From the NCBI GenBank assembly GCA_041940025.1, contig JBGTSY010000002.1, positions 129,396 to 193,395 on the forward strand: 64,000 bases of DNA, written 5' to 3'. The notes beneath the pieces are model-generated. The model was not told where the DNA came from. It made no database searches and saw nothing but the letters and a program-made list of their open reading frames with translations. The position numbers were made by a program, and so were the translations under genes. This stretch comes from Thiotrichaceae bacterium (GTDB lineage Bacteria; Pseudomonadota; Gammaproteobacteria; UBA5859). Below, one piece after another: positions 8,124 through 63,341 of this stretch; the stretch's first letter is position 1, and each line of letters opens with the position of its first letter.

Positions 8124-8340
8124 ACTTAGAGATTGCCCGGCGCCTATCTGCTTTAATCGGTCACTGCAAGCCTTGGCATACAGATATGAGGTTTATCTGC
8201 ACGATTGGGCAACATGATGAAGCTCATGCTGCCACGCAGAAAAAGGGAGGTGTAACCCGGAGAAAATTTTTACTGGACGAGACTGAGGCTGCGCGCTACC
8301 CAGGGAGCACACCCAATTATCGTTCGAGGTAAACCGATTT

Positions 8341-8610: not shown

Positions 8611-8783
8611 ATGTTTCTCCTAAAGGTGTCACTTAAGTCAAGAGGGCGAAATATGCTAAAAATCGACCAGATTGTCAATCTATTGAATCTCTTTTGGTCT
8701 TGGCTGGCGTAACTTTTGCCATGATAATATGTGCCCCTTTTGGTTAATTTTTAGTGGCTTAGCGTCCATTCACAGGGTCTTGG

Positions 8784-38613: not shown

Positions 38614-38623
38614 TCATTAGCTG

Positions 38624-47052: not shown

Positions 47053-48822
47053 TTAGAATGGCCAGATCATTGGTGCTAAAACGAGGGTGACTACTGCTAC
47101 CACTATAGTGAGTGGGATACCCGCGCGTAGGAAATCTGCAAAATGATAACCGCCGGGTCCAGCCACCATTAAATTGGTTTGATATCCGATGGGACTAGCG
47201 AAGCTGGCGGAGGCGGCCATCATCAAGGTCATGGCAAAGGGCATAAAACTGACTTCTAGTTGTTGACTGGCCGCAAGGGCGATTGGGAACATAATGACTG
47301 CTGCTGCATTGTTACTGACCATGGAAGTGAGTAATGCGGTTACGGCAAAGATTATTCCCAGAGCCCAGAGCGGATGGCCCGCACTAAAGATACCCACACC
47401 TGAACCAATCAGCTGTGCCAATCCGCTGCTTTGCATGGCCTCACCAAGAGCAAATGCAGCGCCAATAGTGATCAAGATCCGCCAGTCTAAACTATTTCTT
47501 GCGTTTTCACCGGTGGTGCAGCGGCTGATCAACATGGCACCGGCGGCCAGGATGGCAGCATTTAACACCGTAGTTACCTGAAATGCGATGAAGGCAATCA
47601 TCAGTCCCAGTATGACTCTGGCAATCCAGCGTTTCTCATGTTGCGGAGGCGTCGAGTCATCTAGTTTGCTGATGAGAAAAAAATCTGAAGAGTTACGGTA
47701 TTGGTTTAAAAAGCGTGGAGAGGTTTCGAGCAAAAGTGTATCACCTGCAAGTAGTTCAATTTCACCAATTTTCTGTTTCAGTCGTTCACCATTGCGGGCG
47801 ACGGCGATTATGGCTGCATTGTAGTGGGTGCGAAATCCTCCTTCTTTAATGCTTTTTCCCACTACAGGACAACTAGGTGACACCACGGCTTCTAGCAAGC
47901 AGCGCTCTTGCAGGGAGGAATCCAACTTAAATACTTGATTAGTGGCAGGTACCAGACCGCGGATCCTTCTCAGCTCTAACATGCTGTCCACTACTCCGGT
48001 AAAAATCAATTGATCCTCGGATTGCAGGACCTCATCCGGTGAAACCGCAGCAATGGCGCGTCCCTGTCGATTGATCTCCACCAAGTAGGAGCCCGGTAGA
48101 TTTCTCAAGCCAGCTTGCTCGATACTGCGACCGATGAGTGGACTATCTTCGGAGATCTGCATTTCTATGACATATTCTCTAGGCTGGGAGAATTGATAGG
48201 TCTGGATATTTCGATTGGGCAATAACCATTTTTGACCAAAGGTAATGGTGAGCACGACAGCAGCCGCAGTAGGGACACCCAGCCAGGCGATATCGAACAG
48301 CCCGACCTCGGGAAGTTCTGAGTGATTCAAAATTAAGCCGTGCACAATCAGGTTAGTGCTCGTGCCGATGAGTGAACAGGTGCCGCCTACAATGGCAGCG
48401 AAGCTAAGGGGCATCATCAATTTAGAGACCGGGATCTGCAGCTTTTTCGCCCAATCGTTCACCATCGGGATCAACACCGCTACCACTGGTGTGTTATTCA
48501 TAAATGCACTAATGGCCGCTACCGGGGGCATCAATCGAATTAAACTGGCTGTAATGCCCTTTGGACGTCCAAACAGCAATGGCACCAGATCGGTCAGGCT
48601 ACCGGTGTCTTTCAGTCCAGCGACCACCACAAACAACACCGCAATGGTAACCACTCCGGGATTAGAAAACCCGTTAAATGCCTGGCCAGGCTCGATGACG
48701 CCGCTTAACAACAGAAATGACAAACCACCCATGAGCACCAGATCTGGCGAGTAGCGAGTCAAAGTGAGCACGCTGAAGCAGGTGAGAATTGTGGCTAACG
48801 TGATAGCAGCGGCTGGAGTCAT
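47053..48822 (-). CDS. SLC13/DASS-family anion permease with two central TrkA-C regulatory domains
   Basis: 589 aa; N- and C-terminal permease halves flanking two TrkA_C-like segments (…GRSIEQAGLRNLPGSYLVEINR…, …GKSIKEGGFRTHYNAAIIAVARNG…). Confidence 0.7.
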   Translation of the reverse strand: MTPAAAITLATILTCFSVLTLTRYSPDLVLMGGLSFLLLSGVIEPGQAFNGFSNPGVVTIAVLFVVVAGLKDTGSLTDLVPLLFGRPKGITASLIRLMPPVAAISAFMNNTPVVAVLIPMVNDWAKKLQIPVSKLMMPLSFAAIVGGTCSLIGTSTNLIVHGLILNHSELPEVGLFDIAWLGVPTAAAVVLTITFGQKWLLPNRNIQTYQFSQPREYVIEMQISEDSPLIGRSIEQAGLRNLPGSYLVEINRQGRAIAAVSPDEVLQSEDQLIFTGVVDSMLELRRIRGLVPATNQVFKLDSSLQERCLLEAVVSPSCPVVGKSIKEGGFRTHYNAAIIAVARNGERLKQKIGEIELLAGDTLLLETSPRFLNQYRNSSDFFLISKLDDSTPPQHEKRWIARVILGLMIAFIAFQVTTVLNAAILAAGAMLISRCTTGENARNSLDWRILITIGAAFALGEAMQSSGLAQLIGSGVGIFSAGHPLWALGIIFAVTALLTSMVSNNAAAVIMFPIALAASQQLEVSFMPFAMTLMMAASASFASPIGYQTNLMVAGPGGYHFADFLRAGIPLTIVVAVVTLVLAPMIWPF

Positions 48823-49158
48823 GTATCAACTAATTCTGTCATCGTAGCGGTCCGGTTTATCCGCTGAACTCAAAGGCTTGTATGGCTGTCAAAGGAGCAG
48901 AGATATTAAAGTGGCTGGAAGAATATATCCAGTATTACTCGTCTTCCAGTGAGACTGCTTCTCTGCGAAAAAACTATTGGATCCTATGGCCCGAAGCCTT
49001 TGAGTGTTCTCTATTTTAACGTTAAAGACCGGTGCCAACGGGCCGCTTATCAATAGAGGCGAATCACTTCCGGAAATTTGCTTTGTACAGCTATCCGGAG
49101 ACTAAGAAAGGTGTTCTAACGTGGTTGCTAGGCGTGTACTGAGTTCAAGGCAAACTGA

Positions 49159-49560
49159 ATGGACTTAAAAATCTTATTAGTGGCAGGAGATCTTGGTGTG
49201 GCGCACTACCTAGAGTCTGTGATGCGGCAGTTTGGAGAGGTAGAAATCTATACGGATTCATCAGATGCATTGGAGGAGTTCGAACAGGCGCTCGCGAAGG
49301 CTGAGCCCTATGATTTAGTCGCCGTTGATCTATTTATGCCGACATTAGACGGTGCTGCTTGCGTTGAAAAAATGCGTGATATTGAGAATCGACGCAAAGT
49401 TCCTGAGGTCTACGCCGCTCGAATTCTGATGATTAGTGTGTTGCATGATGGACTGGATGGATTGGACGCTGAGGTGGAAGGGTGCAACGGCTATCTATTT
49501 AGGCCATTTGCACCAGCTGACTTGGTCTCGCAAATACGTAATGTTGTGGTGTTAGACTAG
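49159..49560 (+). CDS. stand-alone response-regulator receiver domain protein (CheY-like)
   Basis: 133 aa; phospho-acceptor context LVAVDLFMPTLDG; no output domain. Confidence 0.5.
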   Translation: MDLKILLVAGDLGVAHYLESVMRQFGEVEIYTDSSDALEEFEQALAKAEPYDLVAVDLFMPTLDGAACVEKMRDIENRRKVPEVYAARILMISVLHDGLDGLDAEVEGCNGYLFRPFAPADLVSQIRNVVVLD

Positions 49561-49858
49561 CAAAAGTTAAATCTCGGTCGAGGTTATCAATCTGTGTACA
49601 CCTCTTCTCACTAATTGATAATTCTCTGTATGCATCCTCGGCATTGTGCATCATGAATTCAACCTACCTTATCGCTGTGATTTTTCACCATTAAATTATC
49701 CAGTCATCTCCCCTGAACATGCTTCCAAGTTCGCATTTTATCATCGCAGATCGAATCATCATTGGTTAAATCCATAGACTGATGCAGGTTGAGTTCAATC
49801 AGAATGTTGTGATTTGCCGCGAGATAGTATGTGCAAGTTGAAAGTCATTGTTATTATT

Positions 49859-49901
49859 GATAATAAGAATGATTTGCATTAAGATTATCGATATGTATAA
49901 T
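49859..49901 (+). promoter_or_regulatory. sigma-70 promoter (-35 TTGCAT 49874-49879, -10 TATAAT 49896-49901, 16-nt spacer) overlapped by a Fur-box-like site GATAATAAGAATGATTTGC (49859-49877)
   Basis: 14/19 match to GATAATGATAATCATTATC; perfect -10 hexamer; ~40 nt upstream of GTG start of porin-like gene. Confidence 0.45.
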
Positions 49902-49941
49902 GTCGCTTTTCTGGCAATCGTCAAAGTCCTGTGGGGGAAAA

Positions 49942-51057
49942 GTGAATATTCGAACTCTGTTATTAATAGGCTTGGGGGGGATTAGCTCTTCCTTGCTAGC
50001 GGATCCAGCTTTAAAACAAGAGGTGTCCGATCTCCGGCAAGAGAATCAGATCTTGAGCGAACGGGTGGACTGGTTAGCCGACCAAATTGAACAAGATACT
50101 GGTGACAGCCAAAAGTCCAGCACCATAGGTGGGTACGGTGAGCTGCACTACAACAATCTGGATAGTGGTGAAGAGATCGATTTCCATCGTTTTGTGCTAT
50201 TTTTCGGTCACCAGTTTAACGAAAACATTCAATTTCATTCGGAATTGGAAGTGGAACATGTGGGCACCGGAGGCAGCACGCTGGGTGGTGAAGTTGAATT
50301 GGAACAGGCGTACATCGACTTCTACATCAACGAACAGAAGAATATCAAAGCGGGATTGTTTTTGATTCCAGTGGGATTTCTCAATGAAACTCATGAACCC
50401 CCCACATTTTTTGGCGTGGAACGCAATCCAATAGAAAAAAATATTATTCCCACAACCTGGTGGGAGGGCGGCGTGGCTGCTTACGGAGAGCTGATTCCTG
50501 GGCTACGATACGACATTGCGTTGACCTCTGGCCTGGATCTTTCCAGTGCGGACAAAGTGCGTTCGGGTCGCCAGAAAGTCTCTAATGCACGTGCCGAGGG
50601 CAAGTTAATTAGTACACGGCTGCAATATAACGCCATACCCGGTATTCAGATCGGGATGAGTGTGCTCTATCAAGATGATGTGAATCAGGATACTACCGCC
50701 GATAAGGCAGACGCGACTCTGGTGGAGGCGCATGGTGCCGTTCGTCGAGGACCATTCGCGGTACGGGCCTTATATGCAACTTGGGATATTGAGGACAAAA
50801 CTAACGGTTACGATGAACAATCGGGTTGGTACATTGAGCCTGCCTATTATCCTTGTGAAAAATGGGGCGTCTTTGTTCGTTTTAATGAGTGGGATAATCG
50901 AGCTGGGGATTCAGCAAGCGATAGTGAAATCGAGCAAGTGGATGTGGGCGTCAACTATTGGCCCCATCCCGATGTAGTCTTGAAGCTGGATTTTCAGGAC
51001 CAGGATGGTGCCAGCGATGACGACGGGTTTAATTTAGGTGTGGGTTATCAGTTCTAG
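49942..51057 (+). CDS. outer-membrane porin-like beta-barrel with N-terminal periplasmic coiled-coil (OprO/P-like architecture)
   Basis: GTG start gives signal peptide VNIRTLLLIGLGGISSSLLA|DP; heptad coiled coil (LKQEVSDLRQENQILSERVDWLADQIEQ); C-terminal …GVGYQF; the ORF-track ATG at 49900 lies inside the -10 box. Confidence 0.5.
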   Translation: MNIRTLLLIGLGGISSSLLADPALKQEVSDLRQENQILSERVDWLADQIEQDTGDSQKSSTIGGYGELHYNNLDSGEEIDFHRFVLFFGHQFNENIQFHSELEVEHVGTGGSTLGGEVELEQAYIDFYINEQKNIKAGLFLIPVGFLNETHEPPTFFGVERNPIEKNIIPTTWWEGGVAAYGELIPGLRYDIALTSGLDLSSADKVRSGRQKVSNARAEGKLISTRLQYNAIPGIQIGMSVLYQDDVNQDTTADKADATLVEAHGAVRRGPFAVRALYATWDIEDKTNGYDEQSGWYIEPAYYPCEKWGVFVRFNEWDNRAGDSASDSEIEQVDVGVNYWPHPDVVLKLDFQDQDGASDDDGFNLGVGYQF

Positions 51058-51595
51058 CTCGTCAGCTCAACGGTGGTTCAATCGCGGCAGCCTGCTGTTA
51101 TTCAGCGGGCTGCTGGCGATTTGCATGACCGATGCTATTGGCCGTGTTCATATCAGCACTCAGGAGTTTTTAACACAACATTTTAACGAGCAAGTACCCG
51201 CACCCCAAATCCTTTGGCTAACAGAAGAATTGCAACGGACTGCGACCGATTTACTGGATCATCCACCGCAGACCATACGCTTGCGTTATTGGCGGCAAGG
51301 CACTAAAGTCGCGTGGGTGATTAATGAAATAGGCAAAGAAAAGCCCATTACTTTCGGTATTGTCGTGCAAGATCACAAAATCGAATCGATTCAGGTACTG
51401 GCATTTAGGGAGTCTCGTGGTGGAGAGATCCGATACTCGGCTTATCGTCAACAATTTAACGGTTCTGCTTTGACATCGAATAATAGATTAGACAAACAAA
51501 TAGACGGTATCACCGGAGCCACCCTATCCGTACGTGCCATGCAGCGAGTGGCACGACTCGCATTATTTGTCAGTAGCGTGGTTGTGGATTCCTAA
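51038..51595 (+). CDS. FMN-binding domain protein (periplasmic/membrane-anchored)
   Basis: 185 aa; N-terminal anchor; C-terminal …QIDGITGATLSVRAMQ… FMN_bind signature (ITGAT). Confidence 0.55.
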   Translation: MWVISSSSSAQRWFNRGSLLLFSGLLAICMTDAIGRVHISTQEFLTQHFNEQVPAPQILWLTEELQRTATDLLDHPPQTIRLRYWRQGTKVAWVINEIGKEKPITFGIVVQDHKIESIQVLAFRESRGGEIRYSAYRQQFNGSALTSNNRLDKQIDGITGATLSVRAMQRVARLALFVSSVVVDS

Positions 51596-51601
51596 AATAC
51601 T

Positions 51602-52381
51602 ATGTCCCCATGGATCCGTCGGTTTCTTCTCTGGCATCGCATGGTGGGCCTTGCCGTTGCTGCGATTCTAATTATATTGGCCATTACGGGCGTATTGCTC
51701 AATCATGCCGATGATCTACGACTACATCAACGTTGGATCACACACCCTGCAATTCTGGATTGGTATCAAATTCCCACGAGTGATCACCCGCCGCTCTCTT
51801 TTAAGGTGGGTGAGAGTTGGGTTAGCCAGTTAGAAGAGCACATCTATTTTAACGAGACATTTTTACGTCACAGTGATTCTATATTCTTGGGTGCAGTCGC
51901 CTACGAAGAGGGATGGCTATATGCCTTGAACAATCAATTGTACCTCTATACCGCAGAAGCGCGGCTCATTGAACAGGTAGATTTAACCTTGGAATTTTCG
52001 CAACCTATCGAAAAAATAGGCACCAATTCAGAGAACCAATTGATTGTGATGGTTGCCCAAAATAGCTGGATAGCAGATGATGAATTATTGGGATGGTGGC
52101 CCTATTTGGAAAATGACGTGAGTTGGGCGCGTCCGGTCTCTTTACCCAACAGGCTCCAGTCCCGATTGGTTCAACTTCATCGTCAACGGCAATTGAGTTA
52201 TGAAGATCTGATACTGGATCTCCATAATGCACAGGTACTGGGCCCCATAGGCAAGTGGTTGTTAGATATTTTGGCGCTCTCTCTGTTGCTGTTGGCTACT
52301 AGTGGACCTTATATTTGGTGGCATGCGATTCGCAAAAACCGTAGCCGCAGACGCACGGTGCGGCGCACAAATCGATCATAA
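51602..52381 (+). CDS. PepSY-associated TM-helix protein (PiuB/FoxB-like iron-regulated membrane protein, short form)
   Basis: MSPWIRRFLLWHRMVGLAVAAILIILAITGVLLNHADDL N-terminal PepSY_TM motif; second TM near C-terminus with HxxR-like segment (…PYIWWHAIRKNR). Confidence 0.55.
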   Translation: MSPWIRRFLLWHRMVGLAVAAILIILAITGVLLNHADDLRLHQRWITHPAILDWYQIPTSDHPPLSFKVGESWVSQLEEHIYFNETFLRHSDSIFLGAVAYEEGWLYALNNQLYLYTAEARLIEQVDLTLEFSQPIEKIGTNSENQLIVMVAQNSWIADDELLGWWPYLENDVSWARPVSLPNRLQSRLVQLHRQRQLSYEDLILDLHNAQVLGPIGKWLLDILALSLLLLATSGPYIWWHAIRKNRSRRRTVRRTNRS

Positions 52382-52394
52382 CAAGAGGCGTTCT

Positions 52395-53420
52395 ATGCAT
52401 AAAAAATTTCTCACCTTAGTTTTATTGTTGTTTGCCTTCCCAGTGACGGCTGCCGAGCGGGAATATTGGATCGCTGCAGAAATAGTTGAGTGGAACTATG
52501 CGCCTAGCGGTCAGAATTTAATCCGAGAACAAAAGGGACTAGGCGTTTGGGGAGACTATCTGATTTATAAGAAATACCGTTATGTGCAATACGTTGACGG
52601 AAGGTTCAAGACACGGGTACCGCAACCAAAGTGGATGGGTATTTTAGGTCCGCAACTGCGTGCAGAAGAAGGCGACACCTTGACCGTACATTTTCTCAAT
52701 CGAACAGATAAACCACTCAGTATTCATCCACATGGCGTGCACTATGATGAGCAAAATGAAGGCGCAGACATGAAAGGTAAGGGCGCCTTTGTGAAGCCAG
52801 GGGATCAATTTACCTATACCTGGCACGCGGATAGTGGTTCGGCTCCAGGGGAGAATGATCATTCTTCTCTCATCTGGACTTATCATTCTCATGTGGATCC
52901 AGTCACTGAAATTTACGACGGTTTGATTGGCACAATAGTCGTCACTAAGAAAGGCTGGGCACGATCTCCCGACGATCCACGCCCAAAAGATGTGGATTTG
53001 GAATTAACCAACCTATTTATGGTATTTGACGAGAATGGTCGTGAAGCATTGGATGTGCCGGCGACTTATCAAGTTCGTAGTGAAGAAGAAGTAGAGGAAG
53101 GCCACTTAAAACACAGCATCAATGGATTTATCTTTGGTAATCTTTTGGGTATGGATCTCATTCAAGGTCAAAAGGTTCGATGGCACTTAATTGGCATGGG
53201 TACAGAAGTGGATTTACACACAGTGCACTGGCATGGCGAGACGGTACTGCAATCAGGCCAGCGGCGGGATGTCATCGATCTGCTACCGAACACCACTGCC
53301 ACAGTAGACATGCGTGCCGACAATCCGGGGGAATGGTTATATCATTGTCATGTTACCGATCACATTACGGCTGGAATGGTTACCCGTTGGCGTGTTCGCG
53401 AAAAAACAAACTCCCCCTAG
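52395..53420 (+). CDS. small (two-domain-type) multicopper oxidase / cupredoxin-fold copper oxidase
   Basis: signal peptide MHKKFLTLVLLLFAFPVTA; Cu-ligand motifs HPHGVHY, WTYHSHVD, HTVHWHGE, HCHVTDHITAGM. Confidence 0.65.
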   Translation: MHKKFLTLVLLLFAFPVTAAEREYWIAAEIVEWNYAPSGQNLIREQKGLGVWGDYLIYKKYRYVQYVDGRFKTRVPQPKWMGILGPQLRAEEGDTLTVHFLNRTDKPLSIHPHGVHYDEQNEGADMKGKGAFVKPGDQFTYTWHADSGSAPGENDHSSLIWTYHSHVDPVTEIYDGLIGTIVVTKKGWARSPDDPRPKDVDLELTNLFMVFDENGREALDVPATYQVRSEEEVEEGHLKHSINGFIFGNLLGMDLIQGQKVRWHLIGMGTEVDLHTVHWHGETVLQSGQRRDVIDLLPNTTATVDMRADNPGEWLYHCHVTDHITAGMVTRWRVREKTNSP

Positions 53421-53717
53421 TTGTATCCTGGTTGTGCATAAAAAACGTGGTTAATAAAGGTATGAATCCTTAACGTTGTCAGAATTAGGATAGGCCGACA
53501 GAACCAGTAAACAATAGATTGAATGCAATAACCACTGTTGTTCAATACATAAACTCTGTTCGCATCACTATCAAATTCAAACTAAATATTTAATTTTATA
53601 ATATTCTAAAGTATTTTACTGCTGCTCCGAAACAAGGCAAAGGGTTCAGCATTCGAAAAATCGATAGAGTTCCCCGAACAATAATCAATTACAAAAATCA
53701 TTGGGGAATGGCATCAA

Positions 53718-54479
53718 GTGAAGAATTATTCAACTACTTTAGTTTCCATAGTTTTACTCTCTTACAGTTATTCAGCTTACGCCTATGAGAAAGGTGAAGT
53801 CTTGTTACGAAGCGGGATGGCTCTGTTAGATCCGAATGCCTCCAGTGAAGCGCTTGTGGTATCCGCACCTGCAGCCGGATTAAATCAACTCTCACTCAAC
53901 TCATTCCTAGGAACAGAGACCGGATTAGGTGTGGAAACGAATATTGCCATCGCAGGCAGTATAAGCTATCTATTGGGACCAACCTGGGGTATCGAAACTT
54001 TAATCGGTCTTCCTGCCGGACTAAAAATAACTGCTCAAGGTTTATCCGCACTAGGTATCGAGGATGTAGGTACAGTGGATGTCTTGCCATTGACCGCCAG
54101 TGTGCAGTACTACCCGAGATTAAAGAATGCAAATTTTCAACCCTATTTAGGATTTGGAACCTACTATGCCTATTTTGGTGAAATTAATTTAGATGATGAA
54201 CTAATGTCAGTTTTTGCTTTTGAAGAGGGTGAATTTGATTTTCGCAGTTCGGTTGGGTACACCATGAATGCCGGCATTGATTGGCAACTGGATGGTCGCT
54301 GGTTTGCAAACCTATCCTTCTATTACATCAATCTAGAGACTGAAGTAGAGGCAAGTATGGAGCAGAATATGTCGTTAGCTTTAGCCGCTGGCTCCGCTAC
54401 CCCAGTATCGGGAGAATTAGAAACTAAAGTAGATGCCGATACTTTCATCTATTTTGTCACTGCGGGATATCGATTTTAG
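53718..54479 (+). CDS. ompW: OmpW-family outer membrane protein
   Basis: signal peptide, 8-strand-size (253 aa), C-terminal …FVTAGYRF. Confidence 0.7.
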   Translation: MKNYSTTLVSIVLLSYSYSAYAYEKGEVLLRSGMALLDPNASSEALVVSAPAAGLNQLSLNSFLGTETGLGVETNIAIAGSISYLLGPTWGIETLIGLPAGLKITAQGLSALGIEDVGTVDVLPLTASVQYYPRLKNANFQPYLGFGTYYAYFGEINLDDELMSVFAFEEGEFDFRSSVGYTMNAGIDWQLDGRWFANLSFYYINLETEVEASMEQNMSLALAAGSATPVSGELETKVDADTFIYFVTAGYRF

Positions 54480-54551
54480 AGTAAGTTCCGTACTTGTCCT
54501 CTAAACAAAGTACACCTAAATAAAATTTTAATTAGATCTGTTATGTAGCCA

Positions 54552-55640
54552 TTAAAAAGTAATGACCCCACGCGCATTCTTGCCTTGTTCAAGATCGTGA
54601 ATGGCTTGAACCGCTTCTGCTATAGGATAAGTTTTAGTTATTAGACGATCTAACTCTAGTTGATTCTGTTGGTACAATTTTAAATAGTGAGGAAAATCCG
54701 TTTTAAAATCTGCATCACCATACAGACACCCCTTAATGATTTTTCCACTCGCGGGCATCATCAAAGCATTGAGAGAGATCGTCTGATCGAAGCGACCGAT
54801 GCCTACCAATGTGACAGTACCGCCACGTCGAGTGGCAGCAAGTGCCTGTTGTACCAAGTCAGGATGGCCTACCACTTCGAAACTTTTGTCAACGCCAATG
54901 TTGTCTGTATGGTCCATAATTTCTTTAACTGAGTTCGCTTTTGCATGGATCAGATCAGTTGCACCAAACTCATTTGCTAAATCAAGTTTCTCTTGTGACA
55001 AATCCACGGCAAATATTTGCTTGGCGCCAGCGATTCGCGCACCTTGAATGACCGACAGACCGACTCCCCCGCAACCAAATATTGCGACTCTGTCTCCTCT
55101 GCACACCGGTGCGGTTTTTAACGCTGCGCCGACGCCAGTGGTTACCCCGCAGCCGACTAGTGCGGCAATTTCAAATGGCACGTCTGCATCAATTGCAGTT
55201 AAACTGATGCTGGGCACGATCGCATATTCAGCCATGTTTCCTAACATAAACAGTGTTGAGACGGGCCTGCCTTTCATGGACAGTCTTGTCGTGCCATCTA
55301 ACATTTTTCCAGGCTCTGATTGGTTGGCCGCCAAGCAAAAGTTGGGTGCCTGATGTTCACAGAAATAGCAATGACCACACTGGGGAATAAAGGAAAGCAA
55401 TACATGATCCCCACACTGAACATTCGCGACGCCTTCTCCAACCTGTTCCACAATACCGGCGCCTTCATGGCCGATGACAGTGGGGAACGGATGAGGGATG
55501 GTGCCATTGATAATAGACAGATCAGAGTGACAGACACCGGCAGCCCGCATCCGAACGAGTACTTCACCGGCTTTCGGCTTATCTAGGGAGACATCTTCAA
55601 CAGCGTATTGATTGAGTTGGTGCACAACTAAGGCTTTCAT
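54552..55640 (-). CDS. zinc-dependent alcohol dehydrogenase (MDR family)
   Basis: GVCHSDLS…GHEGAGIV catalytic Zn motif; structural Zn Cys cluster; GCGGVGLSV NAD motif. Confidence 0.85.
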   Translation of the reverse strand: MKALVVHQLNQYAVEDVSLDKPKAGEVLVRMRAAGVCHSDLSIINGTIPHPFPTVIGHEGAGIVEQVGEGVANVQCGDHVLLSFIPQCGHCYFCEHQAPNFCLAANQSEPGKMLDGTTRLSMKGRPVSTLFMLGNMAEYAIVPSISLTAIDADVPFEIAALVGCGVTTGVGAALKTAPVCRGDRVAIFGCGGVGLSVIQGARIAGAKQIFAVDLSQEKLDLANEFGATDLIHAKANSVKEIMDHTDNIGVDKSFEVVGHPDLVQQALAATRRGGTVTLVGIGRFDQTISLNALMMPASGKIIKGCLYGDADFKTDFPHYLKLYQQNQLELDRLITKTYPIAEAVQAIHDLEQGKNARGVITF

Positions 55641-55840: not shown

Positions 55841-56368
55841 ATGAAATTGTCTCGCTACGTAATCAGTTTTAGCATAGTTATTGTCTGTATCGCTACCCCG
55901 TCATTCGCGGAATCAGAAGACTGGCCGAAAGAGTTCGAATTAGAGAAATACTTTATTGGAAAAACGACTGCCTGGGGGATTTTTGAAAATCGTCAAGGAG
56001 AGCTTGTACGTCAGTTTAAAGTGAGCATCGTCGGGGAAATGCAAGATAATGAATTGGTCTTGACCGAAGATTTCCACTACGCCAATGGAGAACAACAAAC
56101 ACGGATCTGGCGAATCGAACGCCTAGAGAACGGAGGTTATCAAGGAAGGGCAGCCGATGTAGTCGGCAACGCAGTAGGTGAGGTGAAGGGAAATCAATTG
56201 TACTGGGCGTATCATTTAGAGTTACCCGTAGGTGATAAAAGTTATGAAGTGAAGTTCACCGATAAAATGTACCTACAGCCAAATGACGTACTAATTAATC
56301 GAGCCATAGTCACCAAATGGGGATTTCGAGTGGGTGAGGTGACAATCGTATTTCTACCAGACAGCTAG
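55841..56368 (+). CDS. hypothetical secreted protein (possibly DUF3833-like)
   Basis: signal peptide MKLSRYVISFSIVIVCIATPSFA; no confident family. Confidence 0.3.
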   Translation: MKLSRYVISFSIVIVCIATPSFAESEDWPKEFELEKYFIGKTTAWGIFENRQGELVRQFKVSIVGEMQDNELVLTEDFHYANGEQQTRIWRIERLENGGYQGRAADVVGNAVGEVKGNQLYWAYHLELPVGDKSYEVKFTDKMYLQPNDVLINRAIVTKWGFRVGEVTIVFLPDS

Positions 56369-56700
56369 ATGATTCTATTGAAGAGTCATCGTCTGTTATA
56401 GTTAATGTATTTGCTAATGATGAAGCCTGAAAATTTTTCAGGCTTGTGGCAACCTCAAAAAAATCTCCAATAAGATGATTGACTAGTAAATGCACTCCTC
56501 GCGCTCGTCAGGGTGTACAGCTTTGGCGATAAACAGTGGGGATCTAAAACGGTACTAAGTGATTAGTTACCTTCTATTGAGAAGAACATGTAAATACAGT
56601 GAGACCGCAGCTGGCGATGATAACCGATGGTGATCTAGCATGTGTTATTTTTCTTAAGACAGGAGCCGCCTAAACAGTGTCAGCGCAAATTTAGGATCTG

Positions 56701-57987
56701 CTATTCTTGTGCTTCTGCATCTTGTATTAAGGTAACTATTAACCCCCCCTCGGGTCGATTCTCGTACTTGATTCGAAAATCAAAATCGTCTACCAATCTT
56801 TTCACGATAGAGAGCCCAATGCCTTCACCGGCCTTGTTATGACCACGGCCGCGTACATGGCGTTCGAAAATATGAGGCAATAATTCCGGCTCGATGCCCG
56901 GGCCATTATCGTAGATTTGCACACGATTGCTCGAGACCCTTATTTCAATATTACCTACCTCAGAGTAACTAATGGCATTACGTATTAAATTACTCAGGAT
57001 GATGCGCACCACCTGGTGTGGTGCTTCAATCTGCCAGTCAGAAATCACCACAAGTTCGATCTCTTGAGACTTGCCGACAACAAGCGGTTGCAATTTTTCA
57101 ATTTCTTCAGAAACCAATTGCACCATACTTTGCTGTGGTTGATCATTGATAATACTGCTTTCCCGCGCCAGGAGTAGAAACACATGAATCAACTCTGCCA
57201 AGTCACGACTGGCCTTTTTCATCATTTTTAAGCGGCTTTTCGCTTTGTCTGACAAGGATGGATCGGTCAATAACATTTGAATGGCACCATCCAGAATAGT
57301 GACTGGGGTGCGCAGTTCGTGGCTGGCATCGGCTGTGAATTGACGTTCTCTTTTTATCAGTTGATCGATTCTTTGGGAATATTCCTGTAGTGCCACCGCC
57401 AGATCTGCTACCTCACCCTTTAGTTTTGGGATCTCCCGATTAAACATCTCCTGTGCGTTTTCCGCGTCCATTCCCTGAACTTGTTTGGCTAGGTGCAGCA
57501 CTGGCGAAATGGCGCCCCAGGTCAGGCGATAACTTATCCAAGTGCCAATGTAGAGTAATATTAGGATGACACTCAGCGGCAAGACTCCAAATAGGAATAC
57601 TAACTTATCTACATTTGCCTCCAGATACACCAGATATAAGCTTTGATTATCGAAATGTTGTACGTACACAGGCACTGCCGGATAAGTGTCAGAATAGAAA
57701 ACATCGATACTCAGTCCCGTCGGCAGCTGTCGTAGAGAAATGGGTAAAGGCGTCTTACCCCCATTGCTAGTGAGGTAACCGATGAGGTTTCTTGTACGTG
57801 GTAGTGGGAAACTGGGATCCTTTCGATATTCTTCAATGAAACTGTGTGCCTCCAGCTCTAACGCTTCTTCCACTAAAACCTGTTCGGTTATCCAGCGAAC
57901 CAAGAGAATGGTGAGCACTAACAACAGGGAGATAAACACCAGTTGCAATGCTAAGGGATTTGAGCGCAGGCGGCTAAAGGGATTCAA
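56701..57987 (-). CDS. two-component sensor histidine kinase (2 TM, HAMP, HisKA, HATPase_c)
   Basis: H-box ADASHELRTPVTIL; N/G boxes LIRNAISYS…, DNGPGI…GEGIGLSIV. Confidence 0.8.
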   Translation of the reverse strand: MNPFSRLRSNPLALQLVFISLLLVLTILLVRWITEQVLVEEALELEAHSFIEEYRKDPSFPLPRTRNLIGYLTSNGGKTPLPISLRQLPTGLSIDVFYSDTYPAVPVYVQHFDNQSLYLVYLEANVDKLVFLFGVLPLSVILILLYIGTWISYRLTWGAISPVLHLAKQVQGMDAENAQEMFNREIPKLKGEVADLAVALQEYSQRIDQLIKRERQFTADASHELRTPVTILDGAIQMLLTDPSLSDKAKSRLKMMKKASRDLAELIHVFLLLARESSIINDQPQQSMVQLVSEEIEKLQPLVVGKSQEIELVVISDWQIEAPHQVVRIILSNLIRNAISYSEVGNIEIRVSSNRVQIYDNGPGIEPELLPHIFERHVRGRGHNKAGEGIGLSIVKRLVDDFDFRIKYENRPEGGLIVTLIQDAEAQE

Positions 57988-57992
57988 ATTTA

Positions 57993-58730
57993 CTATGTGG
58001 GTTGGTCATGCAAGCGATAGCCAATGCCATGAATGGTATGTAGCAATTTTTTCTCAAAAGGTTTATCGATGGCTTGACGGATAGCGGACATATGGGTGCG
58101 TAACGCATCACTGTCGGTGGGTTCATCGCCCCACACCGCCGCTTCGATTTCCTGCCTGGATACCACGCGATGGCTCTGTTGCATGAGTAGGTTTAAAATT
58201 TTTAGCCGTACGGGGTTCAGCGTAATCTGTGTGTTTTCTCGAGTGACCTGAAAGGTTTCAGTGTTTAGGATTAAATCCCCGACCTTAATTTCTGTATCCA
58301 TGCCATGACGTGTTCGACGCCATAGTGCGGTCAATCGTGCTTCCACCTCCGGTAAGTCGAAAGGTTTCACTAAATAATCATCCGCGCCTATATCGAATCC
58401 GGTGAGTTTATCCTCGAGGGTGTCCCGAGCGGTTAACATTAAGATGGTGACTGATGAGTGTGCCTCTTGACGTAGTTTGCGACAAACTTCAATCCCGTCC
58501 ATGCCAGGCAATGCCCAATCCAGGATGATTGCGTCATACTCATTTTCTGTGGCCAGCTGGTATGCGGCATGGCCATCTGCGGCGTGATCCGGAATGTGTC
58601 CCAGATCTGCGAGATAATCTAATAGCAATGTTGCGATGTCTAAATTATCTTCAACCACCAAGACACGGCATTTAAGATCGGTGATTTTATTCATAGGAGT
58701 CAGACCACAGGGTAAGGTGATACTGACCAT
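57993..58730 (-). CDS. OmpR-family response regulator
   Basis: receiver (RVLVVEDN…ILDWALPGMDG) + winged-helix trans_reg_C (…HTIHGIGYRL); real start probably internal MNKITDLK. Confidence 0.8.
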   Translation of the reverse strand: MVSITLPCGLTPMNKITDLKCRVLVVEDNLDIATLLLDYLADLGHIPDHAADGHAAYQLATENEYDAIILDWALPGMDGIEVCRKLRQEAHSSVTILMLTARDTLEDKLTGFDIGADDYLVKPFDLPEVEARLTALWRRTRHGMDTEIKVGDLILNTETFQVTRENTQITLNPVRLKILNLLMQQSHRVVSRQEIEAAVWGDEPTDSDALRTHMSAIRQAIDKPFEKKLLHTIHGIGYRLHDQPT

Positions 58731-58756
58731 TTTATCTTAGGTTGGAAAATTTAGGT

Positions 58757-58784
58757 ATAAAAAACCCCGAGCCGGAGCTCGGGG
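58757..58784 (-). terminator. rho-independent terminator downstream of DUF4397 lipoprotein gene
   Basis: on minus strand ccccgagc-uccg-gcucgggg followed by UUUUUU (plus-strand aaaaaa 58759-58764, stem 58765-58784); preceded by G8/C8 homopolymer 58793-58800. Confidence 0.55.
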
Positions 58785-58804
58785 TCAGTCAAGGGGGGGG
58801 TGAA

Positions 58805-60109
58805 TTAATTCAGATCTGCAAGTAGTAAGGCACCAAAGTCGCTTGAGCCCGGAGCGGGATCCAGCGCAAATGCAGTGCGGATTTGACCATCCGTTAAGAC
58901 AACCGCACCGGAATCGATTGCCACAGTCTTGGTGTCGGCGACCGCGATGAGTACGCGATAGGTACCTGCCGGTACTTCCAAGTACCCACTATCTTGTTTG
59001 AAATCAAAGTCTTCGATAGCTGGATCGATACTGGAAATGTCATCTGTACCGGCGGTGATATAAATATCCACTAATCCAGCGCTGGGTGCAGCGTGAACTA
59101 GCCTCAATTTAATGTTGCCGACCTCCGGTTGGCTGTTATCGTCAACCAGCACCAAAGGTTCGATGCTTGCTAAGAAATTCACTGCGGCAACGGTGTAGTC
59201 AGTACCGGCATCGATACCAAGGTCGGCGTCAATGACAGTGGCATTGGAGGCAGCAGCGTTGACTTTGAGATTGGTCTCACCCGAAAGAATGGTCAAATAT
59301 TCCGAACCGATTCCAAATGGCACATCGCTCAAAGCCACTTCGTCGTTGACCAGCACATTCACTTCCGGCGCATCGGCGGAGGCGTGTACGGCTCGTACCC
59401 GGGCTCGAGCATCATTCAGTGCGATGACAGGTGTTTTCTTACTTTCTTGCATCAACACTAAGCCGATGGGAGAAAGTCCCGTAGACACCTCAGTGGCCAC
59501 TGCAATGATCTCACTACCCGCAGGGATATTCAGCGGTCCGGAATCATAGACTACATTGGAGTCGCCGGCTAAGGTGGCACGAACTCGATAGTCACCTGCC
59601 GCCACTTCCAACTCATCAGAGACTGCTTTGAACGGCACTGCAGAGAGCGTAGGGGTAGCGCCAACAAGATTGTCTTCTGCACCGGTGATGTAGATATCTA
59701 CTTCGGGTATGCTGGGTGCCGCATGAACCACTTGCAACTGAATAAAGCCTTCGGCAGGAGAATCAGCCTCGTTGGCGATGACCAGCGGTTCAATGCTCGC
59801 CACGTTATTCAATGCTACGATGGTGTATTCCACGCCTTTTTGAAGATCCACATCGGCGCTAATGACTGCAGTGTCAGTGCCAGCGGGTCGGACTTCAATC
59901 GGTGTGTTACCTTTCAATGCGGGAAGGAATCCAGTTCCTTCTCGGTAGTTGAGATCTTTCGCTACTTTGATACCACGGGCAGTGATGTCCACTGCAGGGG
60001 CGTCAGGAGAGGCATGTAAGAATCTGACTTTGACGATCGATTCTTCGTTACATCCTGCAAGTGAAATACCGAGCACGGATGCCATTGCTAATGAGAGGGG
60101 ACGTTTCAT
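58805..60109 (-). CDS. DUF4397-repeat lipoprotein
   Basis: lipobox SLAGC; ~4 internal repeats of a ~100-aa module (…RFLHASPDAPAVDI…, …QVVHAAPSIPEVDIYI…, …RAVHASADAPEVNVLV…, …RLVHAAPSAGLVDIYI…). Confidence 0.6.
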   Translation of the reverse strand: MKRPLSLAMASVLGISLAGCNEESIVKVRFLHASPDAPAVDITARGIKVAKDLNYREGTGFLPALKGNTPIEVRPAGTDTAVISADVDLQKGVEYTIVALNNVASIEPLVIANEADSPAEGFIQLQVVHAAPSIPEVDIYITGAEDNLVGATPTLSAVPFKAVSDELEVAAGDYRVRATLAGDSNVVYDSGPLNIPAGSEIIAVATEVSTGLSPIGLVLMQESKKTPVIALNDARARVRAVHASADAPEVNVLVNDEVALSDVPFGIGSEYLTILSGETNLKVNAAASNATVIDADLGIDAGTDYTVAAVNFLASIEPLVLVDDNSQPEVGNIKLRLVHAAPSAGLVDIYITAGTDDISSIDPAIEDFDFKQDSGYLEVPAGTYRVLIAVADTKTVAIDSGAVVLTDGQIRTAFALDPAPGSSDFGALLLADLN

Positions 60110-60292
60110 ATCTAGCTCCTATAAAATGAAATGATTTGATTAAGCGAGAGCCACTATAGGACACAGAAGGTGAAATCTTGCTCAAGAAAAACTCAAAAAA
60201 ATGTTAATCTTTAAAATCATTTCGCTTAGAAATTGACATTTTTTTCACGCCTGTGCTTCTAAGCTGTGCTAAAGGATTAACTATAGGTACCA

Positions 60293-60856
60293 GTGATGAC
60301 GAATAGAACTAACCAATTGATGCTGAGCAGCCTGCTAAGCAAATCGACAATTTCCGCACTCATATTTGCATGCCTAATTTCATTTGTTGACGCAGTAAAA
60401 GCTGAGGAAACGAAGGTATTGGAAAATTGGCAACAGGTGGGCACAGGCACACTTAAATATTTGGGGTTCCGCTTATATACCGCGAGTTATTACCAGAACG
60501 AGGCGGATGTGGCGTCCAGCGGCGAGGCGCTGCGTATTCAGTATCATCGCCGGATTAAAAGCGACCAACTGCTCTTTGCTACAGAAAAAATCTGGCAGCG
60601 AATGGGCGAGCTCTCTGATGAGCAGATCGAGTTGTATGTGGACAGACTCAGATCTATCTGGCCATCTGTAACCGCAGCGGATGAATTGATATTTAAAGTG
60701 GATAACACTGGTGCAGGTGAGTTTTATTTCAACGGCCAGCTGATTGGTAAGGTGACAGATAGCGCCTTAAGTGATGCCTTTCTAGGGATTTGGTTATCAC
60801 CTGAGAGTCCCAATAAACAACTGAGAAATCAACTTCTCGGTTTAACAAATTCTTGA
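60293..60856 (+). CDS. chalcone-isomerase-like family protein (CFA-synthase operon-associated)
   Basis: signal peptide; …LKYLGFRLYTASYY… motif typical of bacterial chalcone_isomerase-like proteins. Confidence 0.55.
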   Translation: MMTNRTNQLMLSSLLSKSTISALIFACLISFVDAVKAEETKVLENWQQVGTGTLKYLGFRLYTASYYQNEADVASSGEALRIQYHRRIKSDQLLFATEKIWQRMGELSDEQIELYVDRLRSIWPSVTAADELIFKVDNTGAGEFYFNGQLIGKVTDSALSDAFLGIWLSPESPNKQLRNQLLGLTNS

Positions 60857-60859
60857 TCT

Positions 60860-61312
60860 TTGATTGCGTATACTTGTTTCAAATTTAGGGAAACAATTAT
60901 CATGAATATAGAAGAGTTTAAACAGACGTTCCAGCAGATTAATAAAACCAGTCTGCACCTTTTAGAGTCCATTTATGAACCAAATGTGGTTTTTCAGGAT
61001 CCCTTGCATCGCATAGAAGGCTTAAATGCGTTGCGCGATTACTTTTCCCGAATGTATGAAAATGTCAGCCACATTGAATTTGATTTCATTACTCACATTC
61101 AGCAGAACGACATTCACATGCTCACATGGGAGATGCATTTTTCTCATCCGCGACTGAACAGCGGTAGACCGATTCTTGTACCGGGATGCAGCCACTTAAA
61201 GTTCGCTGATAAATGCCTTAACCATAGAGACTATTTTGATCTAGGTGCACTGCTGTACGAAAACATCAGCGGCCTGGGTACGCTGATTCGGTTTGTTAAA
61301 GGAAGGGCTTAA
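60860..61312 (+). CDS. SnoaL-like / NTF2-fold protein
   Basis: 150 aa, pattern typical of nuclear-transport-factor-2-family proteins in cfa-associated operons. Confidence 0.5.
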   Translation: MIAYTCFKFRETIIMNIEEFKQTFQQINKTSLHLLESIYEPNVVFQDPLHRIEGLNALRDYFSRMYENVSHIEFDFITHIQQNDIHMLTWEMHFSHPRLNSGRPILVPGCSHLKFADKCLNHRDYFDLGALLYENISGLGTLIRFVKGRA

Positions 61313-61314
61313 AG

Positions 61315-62082
61315 ATGGATAAAACATATTATGAGAATCGCGTTATCTGGATAACCGGCGCCTCTTATGGGATTGGTAAAGCTTTGGCTGAAGAGATGAG
61401 CCGACGCGGCGCCCGTCTGGCTCTATCTGCACGAAGTGAAGACAAGTTGACTCAACTCGTCGATTCCCTTCCGAACGAAGCCATAGCCTATCCTCTTGAC
61501 GTCACGGATCGAACAGCGAATAAACAGGTTGTCGATCAAATTGTCACAGATTTTGGTCAGTTAGATACGGCTTTATTTAATGCGGGTACCAATCAATATG
61601 TTGAGGTCAATGAGTTCAATAGTGACCCTTTTGAACACATCATGAAAGTCAACTTTATGAGCATGGTATATGGCATTGAGGCGGCCTTGCCTCAACTGAA
61701 GATTTCTCGCCAACCTCATTTGGTCGGGGTGAGTAGCACGGCAGCCTACAATGGTCTGCCCAGAGCAGAGGCCTATGGCGCCAGTAAAGCCGCTATTCGT
61801 AATATGCTTGAGGCTTTAGGATTGAGTTTAATGCCCTTACAGATTCCGGTATCAGTCGTCTGTCCGGGCTTTGTGAAAACACCCTTGACAGACGAAAATG
61901 ATTTTCCTATGCCTTTTCTGGTTGAAGCGGAAGAAGCAGCACGCATCATCGCTGACGAACTGATGCGTTATAAAAAAGAAATACATTTTCCAAAATTGTT
62001 TTCGACTACATTGAAAATAATTTCTTATTTACCTAAATCGTGGTCAGCACGATTATTAGCAAAGACTGTGAGGACGCAATGA
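61315..62082 (+). CDS. short-chain dehydrogenase/reductase (SDR)
   Basis: TGASYGIGKA cofactor motif, YGASKAA catalytic motif. Confidence 0.85.
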   Translation: MDKTYYENRVIWITGASYGIGKALAEEMSRRGARLALSARSEDKLTQLVDSLPNEAIAYPLDVTDRTANKQVVDQIVTDFGQLDTALFNAGTNQYVEVNEFNSDPFEHIMKVNFMSMVYGIEAALPQLKISRQPHLVGVSSTAAYNGLPRAEAYGASKAAIRNMLEALGLSLMPLQIPVSVVCPGFVKTPLTDENDFPMPFLVEAEEAARIIADELMRYKKEIHFPKLFSTTLKIISYLPKSWSARLLAKTVRTQ

Positions 62083-63341
62083 AAATAGCCATTATTGGGG
62101 CAGGAATATCGGGACTGGTGGCCGCACACAAGCTCAAAGCACAACACGAAGTGGTCTTGTATGAAGCCAATAATCATATCGGTGGGCATACTCATACACA
62201 TGAAATTCATGATGGTCAGCAGATCCATCGAATCGATACTGGATTCATTGTTTTTAATGATCGGACTTATCCGAATTTTCTATCTCTACTGAATGAACTG
62301 GGCGTGGCCTATCAAAAAACTCACATGGGCTTTAGTGTCAACCAACGAGACGCAAAATTCGCGTATGCGGGCACTTCCCTCAATGCGCTGTTTGCGCAGC
62401 GTAGCAATTTAGTGAATGTGTCCTTCTGGGGTATGTTAAGAGATATACTTCGTTTTAATCGCCAAGCGGTCAATGATATAAACGAATCGCAAACATTTGG
62501 TGATTATCTATTGAGGGCGAACTATTCTCAGTACTTCATAGAACGGTACATTCTTCCTATGGGAGCGGCTATATGGTCTTCGGATCCGCAGCTCATCTTA
62601 GACATGCCGATGAAGTTTTTTATTCGCTTTTTTGATAATCATGGGTTACTCACCGTAACCAACCAACCTCAGTGGTATGTGATTCGTAATGGTTCTAAGT
62701 CCTACGTAGATTCGTTGATGCAGAGCTTTAACCATCGAGTCGTGACAGAGACACCTGTTCGTGCAGTATATCGAGACGCCAACAAAGTAGGCGTGTTGAC
62801 AGAAAAGTTTGGCAAAGAGATATTTGATGAGGTGATATTTGCATGCCATAGTGATCAAGCATTGTCCCTATTGTCGAATCCCTCTAATGAAGAGCGGGAG
62901 ATATTGAGCGCCATTCCCTATCAGCACAATACTGCTGTATTGCACTCAGACACTCGATTATTGCCCAATCAAAAACGAGCCTGGGCAGCCTGGAATTATC
63001 AGATCAATGAAAACCGGGGCGCGACACTGACCTATAACATGAATATTCTACAGGGATTAAATACATCGCAAACCTATTGCGTGACCTTAAATCAGACAGA
63101 ACAGATCGCGCCAGAGAAAGTAATTAAGGTCTTACAGTATGAACATCCTGTATTTAATGAGCAGAGCGTTGCCGCACAGGGGCGTTGGTCTGAAATATCT
63201 GGTAAGAATCATACTCATTATTGTGGTGCTTACTGGAGATGGGGATTCCATGAGGACGGTGTAGTGAGTGCGTTGAGAGTGGTAGAACAAATCGAGAATG
63301 GAGGCAGGCATGAACAGTTGCCTTTACGTCGGGTCAGTTAA
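62079..63341 (+). CDS. NAD(P)/FAD-dependent amine-oxidase-like oxidoreductase
   Basis: ATGA overlap with SDR; MKIAIIGAGISGLVAAHKL Rossmann; C-terminal …GAYWRWGFHEDGV typical of this cfa-associated oxidase. Confidence 0.75.
   Translation: MKIAIIGAGISGLVAAHKLKAQHEVVLYEANNHIGGHTHTHEIHDGQQIHRIDTGFIVFNDRTYPNFLSLLNELGVAYQKTHMGFSVNQRDAKFAYAGTSLNALFAQRSNLVNVSFWGMLRDILRFNRQAVNDINESQTFGDYLLRANYSQYFIERYILPMGAAIWSSDPQLILDMPMKFFIRFFDNHGLLTVTNQPQWYVIRNGSKSYVDSLMQSFNHRVVTETPVRAVYRDANKVGVLTEKFGKEIFDEVIFACHSDQALSLLSNPSNEEREILSAIPYQHNTAVLHSDTRLLPNQKRAWAAWNYQINENRGATLTYNMNILQGLNTSQTYCVTLNQTEQIAPEKVIKVLQYEHPVFNEQSVAAQGRWSEISGKNHTHYCGAYWRWGFHEDGVVSALRVVEQIENGGRHEQLPLRRVS

Follow-up and report, generated by a model that had tools for sequence, protein, structure and literature searches.

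A four-gene envelope operon of a Thiotrichaceae bacterium, probably Fur-controlled, for a porin, an FMN_bind protein, a short PepSY_TM protein and a ceruloplasmin-related multicopper oxidase

We analysed a 64,000-nucleotide stretch of the genome of a Thiotrichaceae bacterium (assembly GCA_041940025.1, contig JBGTSY010000002.1), referred to below as the window, in which an initial annotation had pointed to an apparently Fur-controlled group of four genes for envelope redox proteins. The GC content of the window is 46.7 %. An intergenic region of about 300 bp precedes a sigma-70-type promoter, which is followed by four genes on the + strand. They encode a porin (ORF 49900-51057), a secreted FMN_bind protein (51038..51595), a short PepSY_TM membrane protein (51602..52381, 259 aa) and a two-domain multicopper oxidase, MCO (52395..53420; 341 aa from ATG 52395, of which about 321 aa form the mature protein). 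The genes are spaced by -20, +6 and +13 nt, confirming the tight linkage and overlap initially described, and because they also share a strand, they form an operon. A Pfam scan supported all four genes and returned Porin_O_P, FMN_bind, PepSY_TM and Cu-oxidase_3/Cu-oxidase_2, in agreement with the families proposed for them; the promoter, the box and the linked genes were all where the initial annotation had placed them. There was no Rfam match in the region 48800-54600 and no convincing intrinsic terminator 3' of the MCO gene. The rest of the 64-kb window consists of housekeeping genes and contains neither other iron genes nor apbE. The closest genome is that of Thiotrichaceae bacterium UBA5859, in which the MCO is 90 % identical and the neighbourhood is syntenic with the window.

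Two of the translation starts needed correction. The porin ORF opens with an ATG at 49900 that falls inside the -10 hexamer, while an in-frame GTG at 49942 is preceded by GGGGGA. Because of the overlap of the ATG with the -10, GTG 49942 is more likely to be the start, giving a predicted protein of 371 aa (49942..51057). The start selected by the gene caller for the FMN_bind gene, ATG 51125, would cut off a signal peptide that is found in all orthologs, so the gene needs a start 5' of this position, either GTG 51038, which gives 185 aa, or another one.

The promoter (49874..49901, + strand) consists of the -35 hexamer TTGCAT (49874-79) and the -10 hexamer TATAAT (49896-901); in a promoter scan, TTTGCA-17-TATAAT (10/12) was the best site in the region 49000-54600. 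As first noticed in the initial annotation, both in sequence and in position, a 19-mer lying over the -35, GATAATAAGAATGATTTGC at 49859, agrees with the 19-bp Fur consensus at 14/19 positions. A lone match of this quality is weak evidence, because the window contains four of them and shuffled sequences 1.9. The match at 49859 is, in addition, part of a run phased by 6 bp, in which agreement of at least 13/19 recurs at 49859, 49865, 49871 and 49877, with another match at 49840, so that the flanking Fur-like matches span 49840 to 49895. The putative Fur-type operator is the 25-bp element GATAATAAGAATGATTTGCATTAAG (49859..49883, + strand), which contains the -35 and whose core, AATGATTTGCATT, is an imperfect inverted repeat. 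Compared by hand, the core AATGAGAATGATTTGCATT agrees at 15/18 positions with what we take to be the gammaproteobacterial Fur inverted repeat, AATGATAATNATTATCATT.

Stronger evidence for the operator came from phylogenetic footprinting. We built a weight matrix only from the orthologous promoters of 7 other genomes and scanned both strands of the window with it. The site at 49859 was the top hit of the whole 64 kb, with 25.5 bits against 11.9 bits for the next unrelated site, so the Fur box of the initial annotation ranked first in the matrix scan too. A 25-bp element with a consensus of about GAGAATGATTTGCATTTAG stands at the -35 in 13/13 porin-led operons examined (the window and loci L007, L023, L038, L074, L078, L085, L087, L089, L095, L096, L098 and L099), 16-18 nt 5' of a TATAAT-like hexamer. 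The geometry of the window promoter, where the box covers the -35 and lies 16-17 nt 5' of TATAAT, is shared by the orthologous promoters. The same motif was found, with 33.8 bits, at an iron locus of Sulfuricaulis sp. (L097, 1-7200; contig JBTSEO010000014.1), where it precedes bfd, two bacterioferritin (bfr) genes, hemP, a cytochrome c-FTR1 fusion, an FMN_bind gene, an ApbE gene, a 163-aa ORF and a member of the porin family. Both bfd and hemP are textbook targets of Fur. Since the element is conserved at the -35 of the orthologs and at the Sulfuricaulis iron locus, we regard it as a Fur-family operator, most probably of Fur itself, and the operon is probably repressed by Fur and induced by iron starvation.

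Other Fur-like matches in the window (1415, 1700, 2797/2803, 31397, 33524, 52851 and others) lie in coding sequence and have poor scores with the family matrix, and we set them aside as chance matches. One of these, the palindrome GAGAATGATCATTCTTCTC at 52851-52869 inside the MCO coding sequence, is a 14/19 Fur match on both strands; it is probably also a chance match, because the family operator matrix misses it.

The product of the first gene has the features of an outer-membrane barrel. It matches Porin_O_P (5e-8), with a score above the cut-off of the OprO/OprP family PF07396, and Porin_4 (2e-7), and its model has the fold of a 16-strand OprP-like barrel. A signal peptide ends in ...LLA/DP and the C-terminus reads GVGYQF, with the terminal Phe reported in the initial annotation. 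The N-terminal coiled coil (49999-50097, + strand) is likewise present and is kept in 8/9 aligned orthologs; it was at first called unusual, although there are precedents on the trimeric porins DcaP, ScrY and FapF, with a trimer-stabilising role in the case of DcaP. In the operon porin, too, the periplasmic coiled coil presumably holds a trimer together. At least 7,977 relatives make this a very large family, and the aligned orthologs are 43-82 % identical. A profile search of the PDB sequences with the porin family detected no solved porin. The invariant residues are mostly Glu and His (E, H, D), located at alternating positions of neighbouring strands and accompanied by an acidic L3 loop. 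They are found, on the + strand, in the motifs SELEVEH (50239-59) and GEVELEQAY (50287-313) and in the L3 loop PVGFLNETHEPP...TTWWE (50368-466), which has the motif NETHEPP...ERNP.EK. The barrels are net negative in 27/27 porin homologs examined. These invariant motifs together with the negative barrels suggest a cation-selective channel, in which the charge would be inverted relative to the arginine ladder of OprP.

The second protein matches FMN_bind (PF04205, 2e-9), and the ITGAT motif read in it initially lies within DGITGATLS (51503-51529, + strand), a predicted site of flavinylation by ApbE. Motifs of the (S/T)GA(T/S) type are known as ApbE flavinylation motifs (Meheust et al., 2021, PMC8238504). 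In a 14-ortholog alignment, the 13 orthologs from operons keep both the signal peptide and the sequence DG(I/V)(S/T)GAT(L/M)S; the paralog of the Sulfuricaulis locus, adjoined by the ApbE gene, reads QNISGATLS.

The third protein is a member of PepSY_TM (PF03929, E 1e-12), scoring 49 bits against a gathering cut-off of 28.8. Its AF2 model, with a pLDDT of 92.6, has two transmembrane (TM) helices (residues 3-34 and 215-258) on either side of a 12-strand domain; the periplasmic part is a three-blade fragment of a beta-propeller (about 65-167). The conserved histidines are H12, H35 and H208. The short PepSY_TM protein was originally described as FoxB-like, and this holds only in part. Of the TM helices of FoxB, only the first and the last align with the protein, each with its histidine, whereas the FoxB-type architecture of at least four TM helices and four heme-ligating His per chain was not found: there are two TM helices and three His. 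The model suggests that a homo-oligomer may rebuild a FoxB-like heme bundle beneath a composite propeller. The short form is common, with at least 1,187 clusters at 50 % identity (E <= 1e-30), all of about 240-270 aa. In the literature, PepSY_TM proteins and PepSY-like flavinylated clusters are assigned to iron reduction, and Fur control has been reported.

The MCO has a Sec signal peptide (residues 1-20) and matches Cu-oxidase_3 (2e-16) and Cu-oxidase_2 (2e-17). Its copper motifs are HPH and HSH in domain 1 and HTVHWH and HCHVTDHITAGM in domain 2, the latter pair corresponding to HxxHxH and HCHxxxHxxxxM. The trinuclear-cluster histidines are H111/H113, H164/H166, H278/H280 and H317/H319, and the type-1 copper ligands, H275, C318, H323 and M328, are located in domain 2 only. 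With two cupredoxin domains, eight trinuclear His and type-1 ligands restricted to domain 2, the protein belongs to the two-domain type B. The eight histidines and the type-1 ligands show no variation, or almost none, among 20 MCO homologs, so that the secreted oxidase of about 320 aa with four complete HxH-type motifs proposed in the initial annotation was borne out, and its ligand set proved complete on alignment. By analogy with other two-domain enzymes, a homotrimer with interfacial trinuclear clusters would be expected. We also noticed that in another metagenome-assembled genome (MAG) of the same organism (GCA_041941165.1; L003, 7411-8105) the MCO was called as two pieces of 125 + 107 aa, which suggests a frameshift or an assembly error.

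It is clear from the alignments that this protein is a single-unit homolog of ceruloplasmin. Each two-domain unit of human ceruloplasmin aligns over the whole MCO (E 4e-59, 3e-52 and 5e-60), while small laccases match it at only 3e-21. The MCO is 37.9 % identical to unit 1 and 39.9 % to unit 2 of the human protein and 49.3 % to rat domain 6; over the same columns, human units 1 and 2 are 37.4 % identical, and the MCO thus resembles these units (38-40 %) as much as they resemble one another (37 %). The Fe(II) holding site of ceruloplasmin, which we take to be formed by E935, H940, D1025 and E272/E971, is consistent in this numbering with the aligned motifs ESNKMH, HCHVTDH and GNE(V/I)D(V/L)H. 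The residues of the MCO aligned with it, E235, H240, D322 and E271, are invariant in the 20 homologs. No Met-rich segment of the CueO/PcoA kind was found in the MCO, which has 8 Met in 341 aa. The initial annotation had left the metal as either Fe(II) or Cu(I), and the retained Fe(II) site favours Fe(II) as the likely substrate.

The single six-domain chain of ceruloplasmin is not present here, the MCO having two domains in 341 aa. We considered that the MCO might have come recently from an animal, as one unit of ceruloplasmin, but this is less likely, because no single unit of ceruloplasmin has a complete set of trinuclear-cluster ligands, which the MCO retains; the similarity to the three units is also about equal. 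The MCO family has 2,218 members at E <= 1e-10, for which the sources give only generic names.

We then compared the gene neighbourhoods of related loci, which are few relative to the sizes of the families; the sample from the MCO search over-represents loci with an MCO. The gene order seen in the window recurred as the neighbourhood comparison proposed initially had required: all four genes stand in this order in the window, in UBA5859, in Beggiatoa alba, in members of Thioalkalispiraceae, Ectothiorhodospiraceae and Pseudomonadales and in two unclassified gammaproteobacteria, which makes 8 distinct loci from several families of this class, and a ninth locus is cut by the end of its contig. 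In B. alba the full module corresponds to MBN4080426.1 to MBN4080429.1. The trio of porin, FMN_bind and PepSY_TM genes occurs without the MCO in L089/L090, L096, L098, L099 and probably L091. The two independent assemblies of L087 and L088 both end about 250-320 bp after the PepSY_TM gene; that they break at the same point may be due to a repeat or to variation between strains. In two of the trio-only loci (L096, 8453-12720; L098, 9224-13155) a convergent RND pump of the CzcB/ACR_tran heavy-metal type adjoins the trio.

Conversely, the MCO is found in other company. In about 64 Poribacteria loci the next genes on its strand encode an FbpA-type ferric binding protein and an FbpB-like fused double permease. 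The binding protein matched PDB entry 7w3w at 1e-99 and H. influenzae FbpA at about 1e-47; NCBIfam names of the 2-aminoethylphosphonate or thiamine type were sub-threshold and ambiguous, and we rejected them on the basis of the PDB sequence search. This MCO-FbpA-FbpB order of sponge-symbiont Poribacteria, seen for example in L013 (7860-11727), is a bacterial 'ceruloplasmin next to transferrin' arrangement. In other gammaproteobacteria the MCO directly follows a gene for a YdjM-family membrane protein (L016, L024 and L054, about 6800-9020). In L008 and L011 it comes after genes for an ABC ATPase, a MacB/FtsX permease and a protein of 405 aa without a match in Pfam. In L054, a Fur-like box of 18.9 bits lies about 300 bp 5' of the YdjM gene. 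Because the trio occurs without the MCO and the MCO without the trio, the conserved core is the porin/FMN_bind/PepSY_TM trio, which constitutes a much larger operon family without a name; the MCO is an accessory, mobile fourth gene. The other best-supported partner of the MCO is ferric iron transport.

From the gene content, the folds, the conservation of ligands and sites, the synteny and the operator conservation observed, we infer a scheme of Fur binding, cofactors, oligomers, substrates and direction of iron flow, in which the operon would encode an iron-starvation-induced envelope pathway with a periplasmic ferric reductase and a ceruloplasmin-type ferroxidase. This is the explanation we favour, with moderate confidence. 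In the presence of iron, Fur-Fe(II) would occupy the box over the -35 and block the operon, and when iron is scarce, all four genes would be transcribed together. The 16-strand OprP-fold porin with its invariant Glu and His would let iron species enter the periplasm, in the simplest case Fe(II). An oligomer of the 2-TM PepSY_TM protein would form a bis-His heme bundle, through which electrons of the cytoplasmic membrane would reach the secreted FMN_bind protein, loaded by ApbE with covalent FMN, and the two proteins together would act as a periplasmic ferric reductase. The homotrimeric MCO would oxidise Fe(II) to Fe(III) at the site beside the blue copper, reducing O2 to water, and the Fe(III) would be captured safely by a ferric binding-protein transporter encoded elsewhere. 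The reductase and the oxidase might act in sequence, with reductive release followed by oxidative capture, or they might be alternative branches suited to life in opposed gradients of O2 and Fe(II)/sulfide.

Several observations weigh against this pathway. A reductase and an oxidase encoded together would seem to counteract each other, and the gammaproteobacterial operons contain no inner-membrane iron permease (Ftr1, FeoB or FbpBC); nor, as noted above, does the window contain the apbE gene that the FMN_bind protein would depend on. The porin model has moderate confidence (pLDDT 72), and the porin retains the invariant basic residues VRSGRQK. The half-sites of the box, GAGAAT/GCGAAT, depart from the canonical GATAAT, and because of this difference the box may belong to another regulator of the Fur family. 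Ceruloplasmin-type MCOs oxidise Cu(I) and amines as well, and the CrpH subfamily of PepSY_TM proteins has recently been linked to copper, not iron.

Other explanations were weighed, the first of which is copper handling. PepSY_TM and FMN_bind could reduce Cu(II) to Cu(I), the MCO could be a CueO-like cuprous oxidase or a copper-loaded client, and the porin could admit copper. Proteins of the CrpH subfamily support heme-copper oxidases and have been proposed to be copper reductases, every MCO protomer requires four Cu, two trio-only loci adjoin the heavy-metal RND pumps described above, and both ceruloplasmin and CueO oxidise Cu(I). The operator, however, is Fur-like and stands also 5' of bfd-bfr-hemP-FTR1, we saw no cop/cus/cue genes or CueR/CopR-type boxes in the operons, and the Poribacteria MCO adjoins FbpA/FbpB. 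As the MCO lacks the Met-rich segment of CueO and PcoA and all four residues of the ceruloplasmin Fe(II) site are invariant, we consider a role in copper handling improbable. The invariance of these residues also weighs against the possibility that the MCO has another substrate, such as Mn(II), phenolics, catechol siderophores or amines, and that the operon serves detoxification or the processing of minerals or metallophores instead of iron uptake. The substrates of MCOs are hard to predict from sequence, the two-domain type B enzymes have mostly been described as laccases, and ceruloplasmin itself oxidises amines. Nevertheless, the MCO is far nearer to ceruloplasmin (about 1e-60 per unit) than to the small laccases (1e-21) and is linked to FbpA and to a Fur-type box, and we give this possibility slightly less credence than copper handling.

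Finally, the operon could encode a chain for the disposal of electrons, leading from the membrane through the PepSY_TM hemes, FMN_bind and the blue copper of the MCO to O2. As an oxidase based on copper and flavin that scavenges periplasmic O2, such a chain could, for example, keep Fe(II) reduced or serve as an iron-sparing substitute under iron limitation. In its favour, the relay genes directly precede that of an O2-reducing enzyme, the carriers are mostly sulfur oxidisers dwelling in gradients (Thiotrichaceae, Beggiatoa, Thioalkalispiraceae), and the operon encodes no iron permease. The trio and the MCO are nevertheless not mutually dependent, because each is common without the other, the trio in L089, L096, L098 and L099 and the MCO in the Poribacteria, YdjM and ABC contexts. 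Furthermore, the PepSY_TM protein itself requires heme iron, and the invariance of the Fe(II) site would be left without explanation. We find this the least probable of the three alternatives.

A broader interpretation of the MCO can be offered only tentatively, and we would not be surprised if parts of it proved wrong. The MCO may belong to a large bacterial family without a name, which would be the present-day counterpart, two-domain and presumably trimeric, of the long-postulated ancestor of ceruloplasmin, hephaestin and the A domains of factors V and VIII. In sulfur-oxidising gammaproteobacteria it may have joined, as the fourth gene, a widespread and uncharacterised Fur-controlled iron pathway across the envelope, in which an acidic 'iron porin' of the OprP fold works together with a flavinylated carrier in the periplasm and a minimal PepSY cytochrome with 2 TM helices. 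If the iron pathway is real, this large operon family would be a new envelope-spanning route of iron acquisition, centred on environmentally important sulfur oxidisers, and it would bring to bacteria the pairing of a periplasmic ferric reductase with a ferroxidase, a logic best known so far from yeast. A one-unit bacterial ceruloplasmin with an intact ferroxidase site would also bear on the origin of six-domain ceruloplasmin and the A domains of the clotting factors, and would offer a small, expressible model for ceruloplasmin iron chemistry. Beggiatoa alba, with the full module, would be an experimental handle.

Some other features of the window were also recorded. A receiver-only response regulator (49159-49560), 5' of the operon, and an OmpW-family gene (53718-54479), 3' of it, are its neighbours in the window organism and the closest relative of that organism (L007), but in none of the other carriers. 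At 38245-40244, directly after MsrP/MsrQ (36504-38018), a 122-aa ORF is followed by a gene of the MbnB/TglH/ChrH family and by HvfC (DUF2063), which together look like a putative metal-binding peptide cluster of the HvfABC type. The region 55841-64000 contains genes for DUF3833, a sensor kinase and an OmpR-type regulator, DUF4397, a chalcone-isomerase-like protein, SnoaL/DUF2358, a short-chain dehydrogenase and an amine oxidase; we take it to resemble the photo-oxidative stress clusters of other proteobacteria.

We searched the literature, with incomplete coverage, and found no description of the trio, of the quartet or of a bacterial MCO corresponding to a ceruloplasmin unit; the MCO family thus appears undescribed. 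The statement of the initial annotation that the four genes are not a named system stands for the set as a whole, but the pair of FMN_bind and PepSY_TM fits the PepSY-like flavinylated systems, which have been defined bioinformatically only (Meheust et al., 2021, eLife, PMC8238504). The operon falls within their definition, a PF03929/PF16357 gene clustered with an FMN-binding or ApbE gene. Iron reduction or assimilation has been proposed for these systems, and Fur repression reported for clusters of Shewanella and Caulobacter. Their usual partners ApbE, DUF2271 and DUF4198 are absent from the operon and from +/-10 kb around it, and their proteins are said to have three TM helices, in contrast to the 2-TM protein with a propeller fragment and an FMN_bind substrate found here. 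The operon also adds an OprP-fold porin as its first gene and a ceruloplasmin-type MCO as its last, neither of which is mentioned in that paper (PMC8238504); PF07732, PF07731 and PF07396 have no entries in the supplements of it that we searched.

The PepSY_TM signature is shared with FoxB (PDB 7ABW), FpvG, FhuB, FsrB and HiuB, VciB being of a related family. Besides the alignment of the His-bearing first and last TM helices, the likeness to FoxB extends to the presumed role, heme-mediated transfer of electrons to the periplasm. In FoxB and its relatives a single chain provides at least four TM helices and a large cavity on the periplasmic side, whereas the operon protein, having two TM helices and three conserved His, could build a heme bundle of this kind only as an oligomer. 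The operon has no TonB-dependent receptor and so gives no indication of a siderophore substrate; the absence of such a receptor from all of the operons led us to set aside a siderophore reductase system of the FoxB/FoxA type. OprP and OprO owe their selectivity for anions (phosphate) to an arginine ladder and a lysine cluster, in place of which the porin appears to conserve Glu and His, suggesting the opposite selectivity. It also differs in the Fur-type box at its promoter; OprP is under phosphate-starvation control.

With the type B MCOs known as small laccases (SLAC), the MCO has in common the two cupredoxin domains and a type-1 copper in the C-terminal domain only. No small laccase is known to have the Fe(II) site of ceruloplasmin. 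Ceruloplasmin and hephaestin agree with the MCO in their pair of cupredoxin domains, in the copper ligands and in an Fe(II) site (E-x4-H / D / E) beside the type-1 copper. Ceruloplasmin has six domains, and the MCO has two, with a full set of trinuclear ligands per protomer; it is also bacterial, periplasmic and Sec-exported. The oxidation of periplasmic Fe(II) for iron acquisition is known from bacterial Ftr1-type systems (FtrABCD, EfeUOB, P19-Ftr1) and from the MCOs of Pseudomonas aeruginosa and Legionella (McoL). The latter enzymes resemble CueO and have three domains, and the partners in the Ftr systems are cupredoxins or peroxidases. The gene sets differ from that of the operon; the FTR1/ApbE locus of Sulfuricaulis contains a relative of the FMN_bind protein and a member of the porin family. 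In yeast, Fre-Fet3-Ftr1 similarly combines a reductase with a ferroxidase, although the operon has no Ftr1-type permease, and in the Poribacteria the ceruloplasmin/transferrin pair has its parallel in an MCO that adjoins a transferrin-like Fe(III) binding protein.

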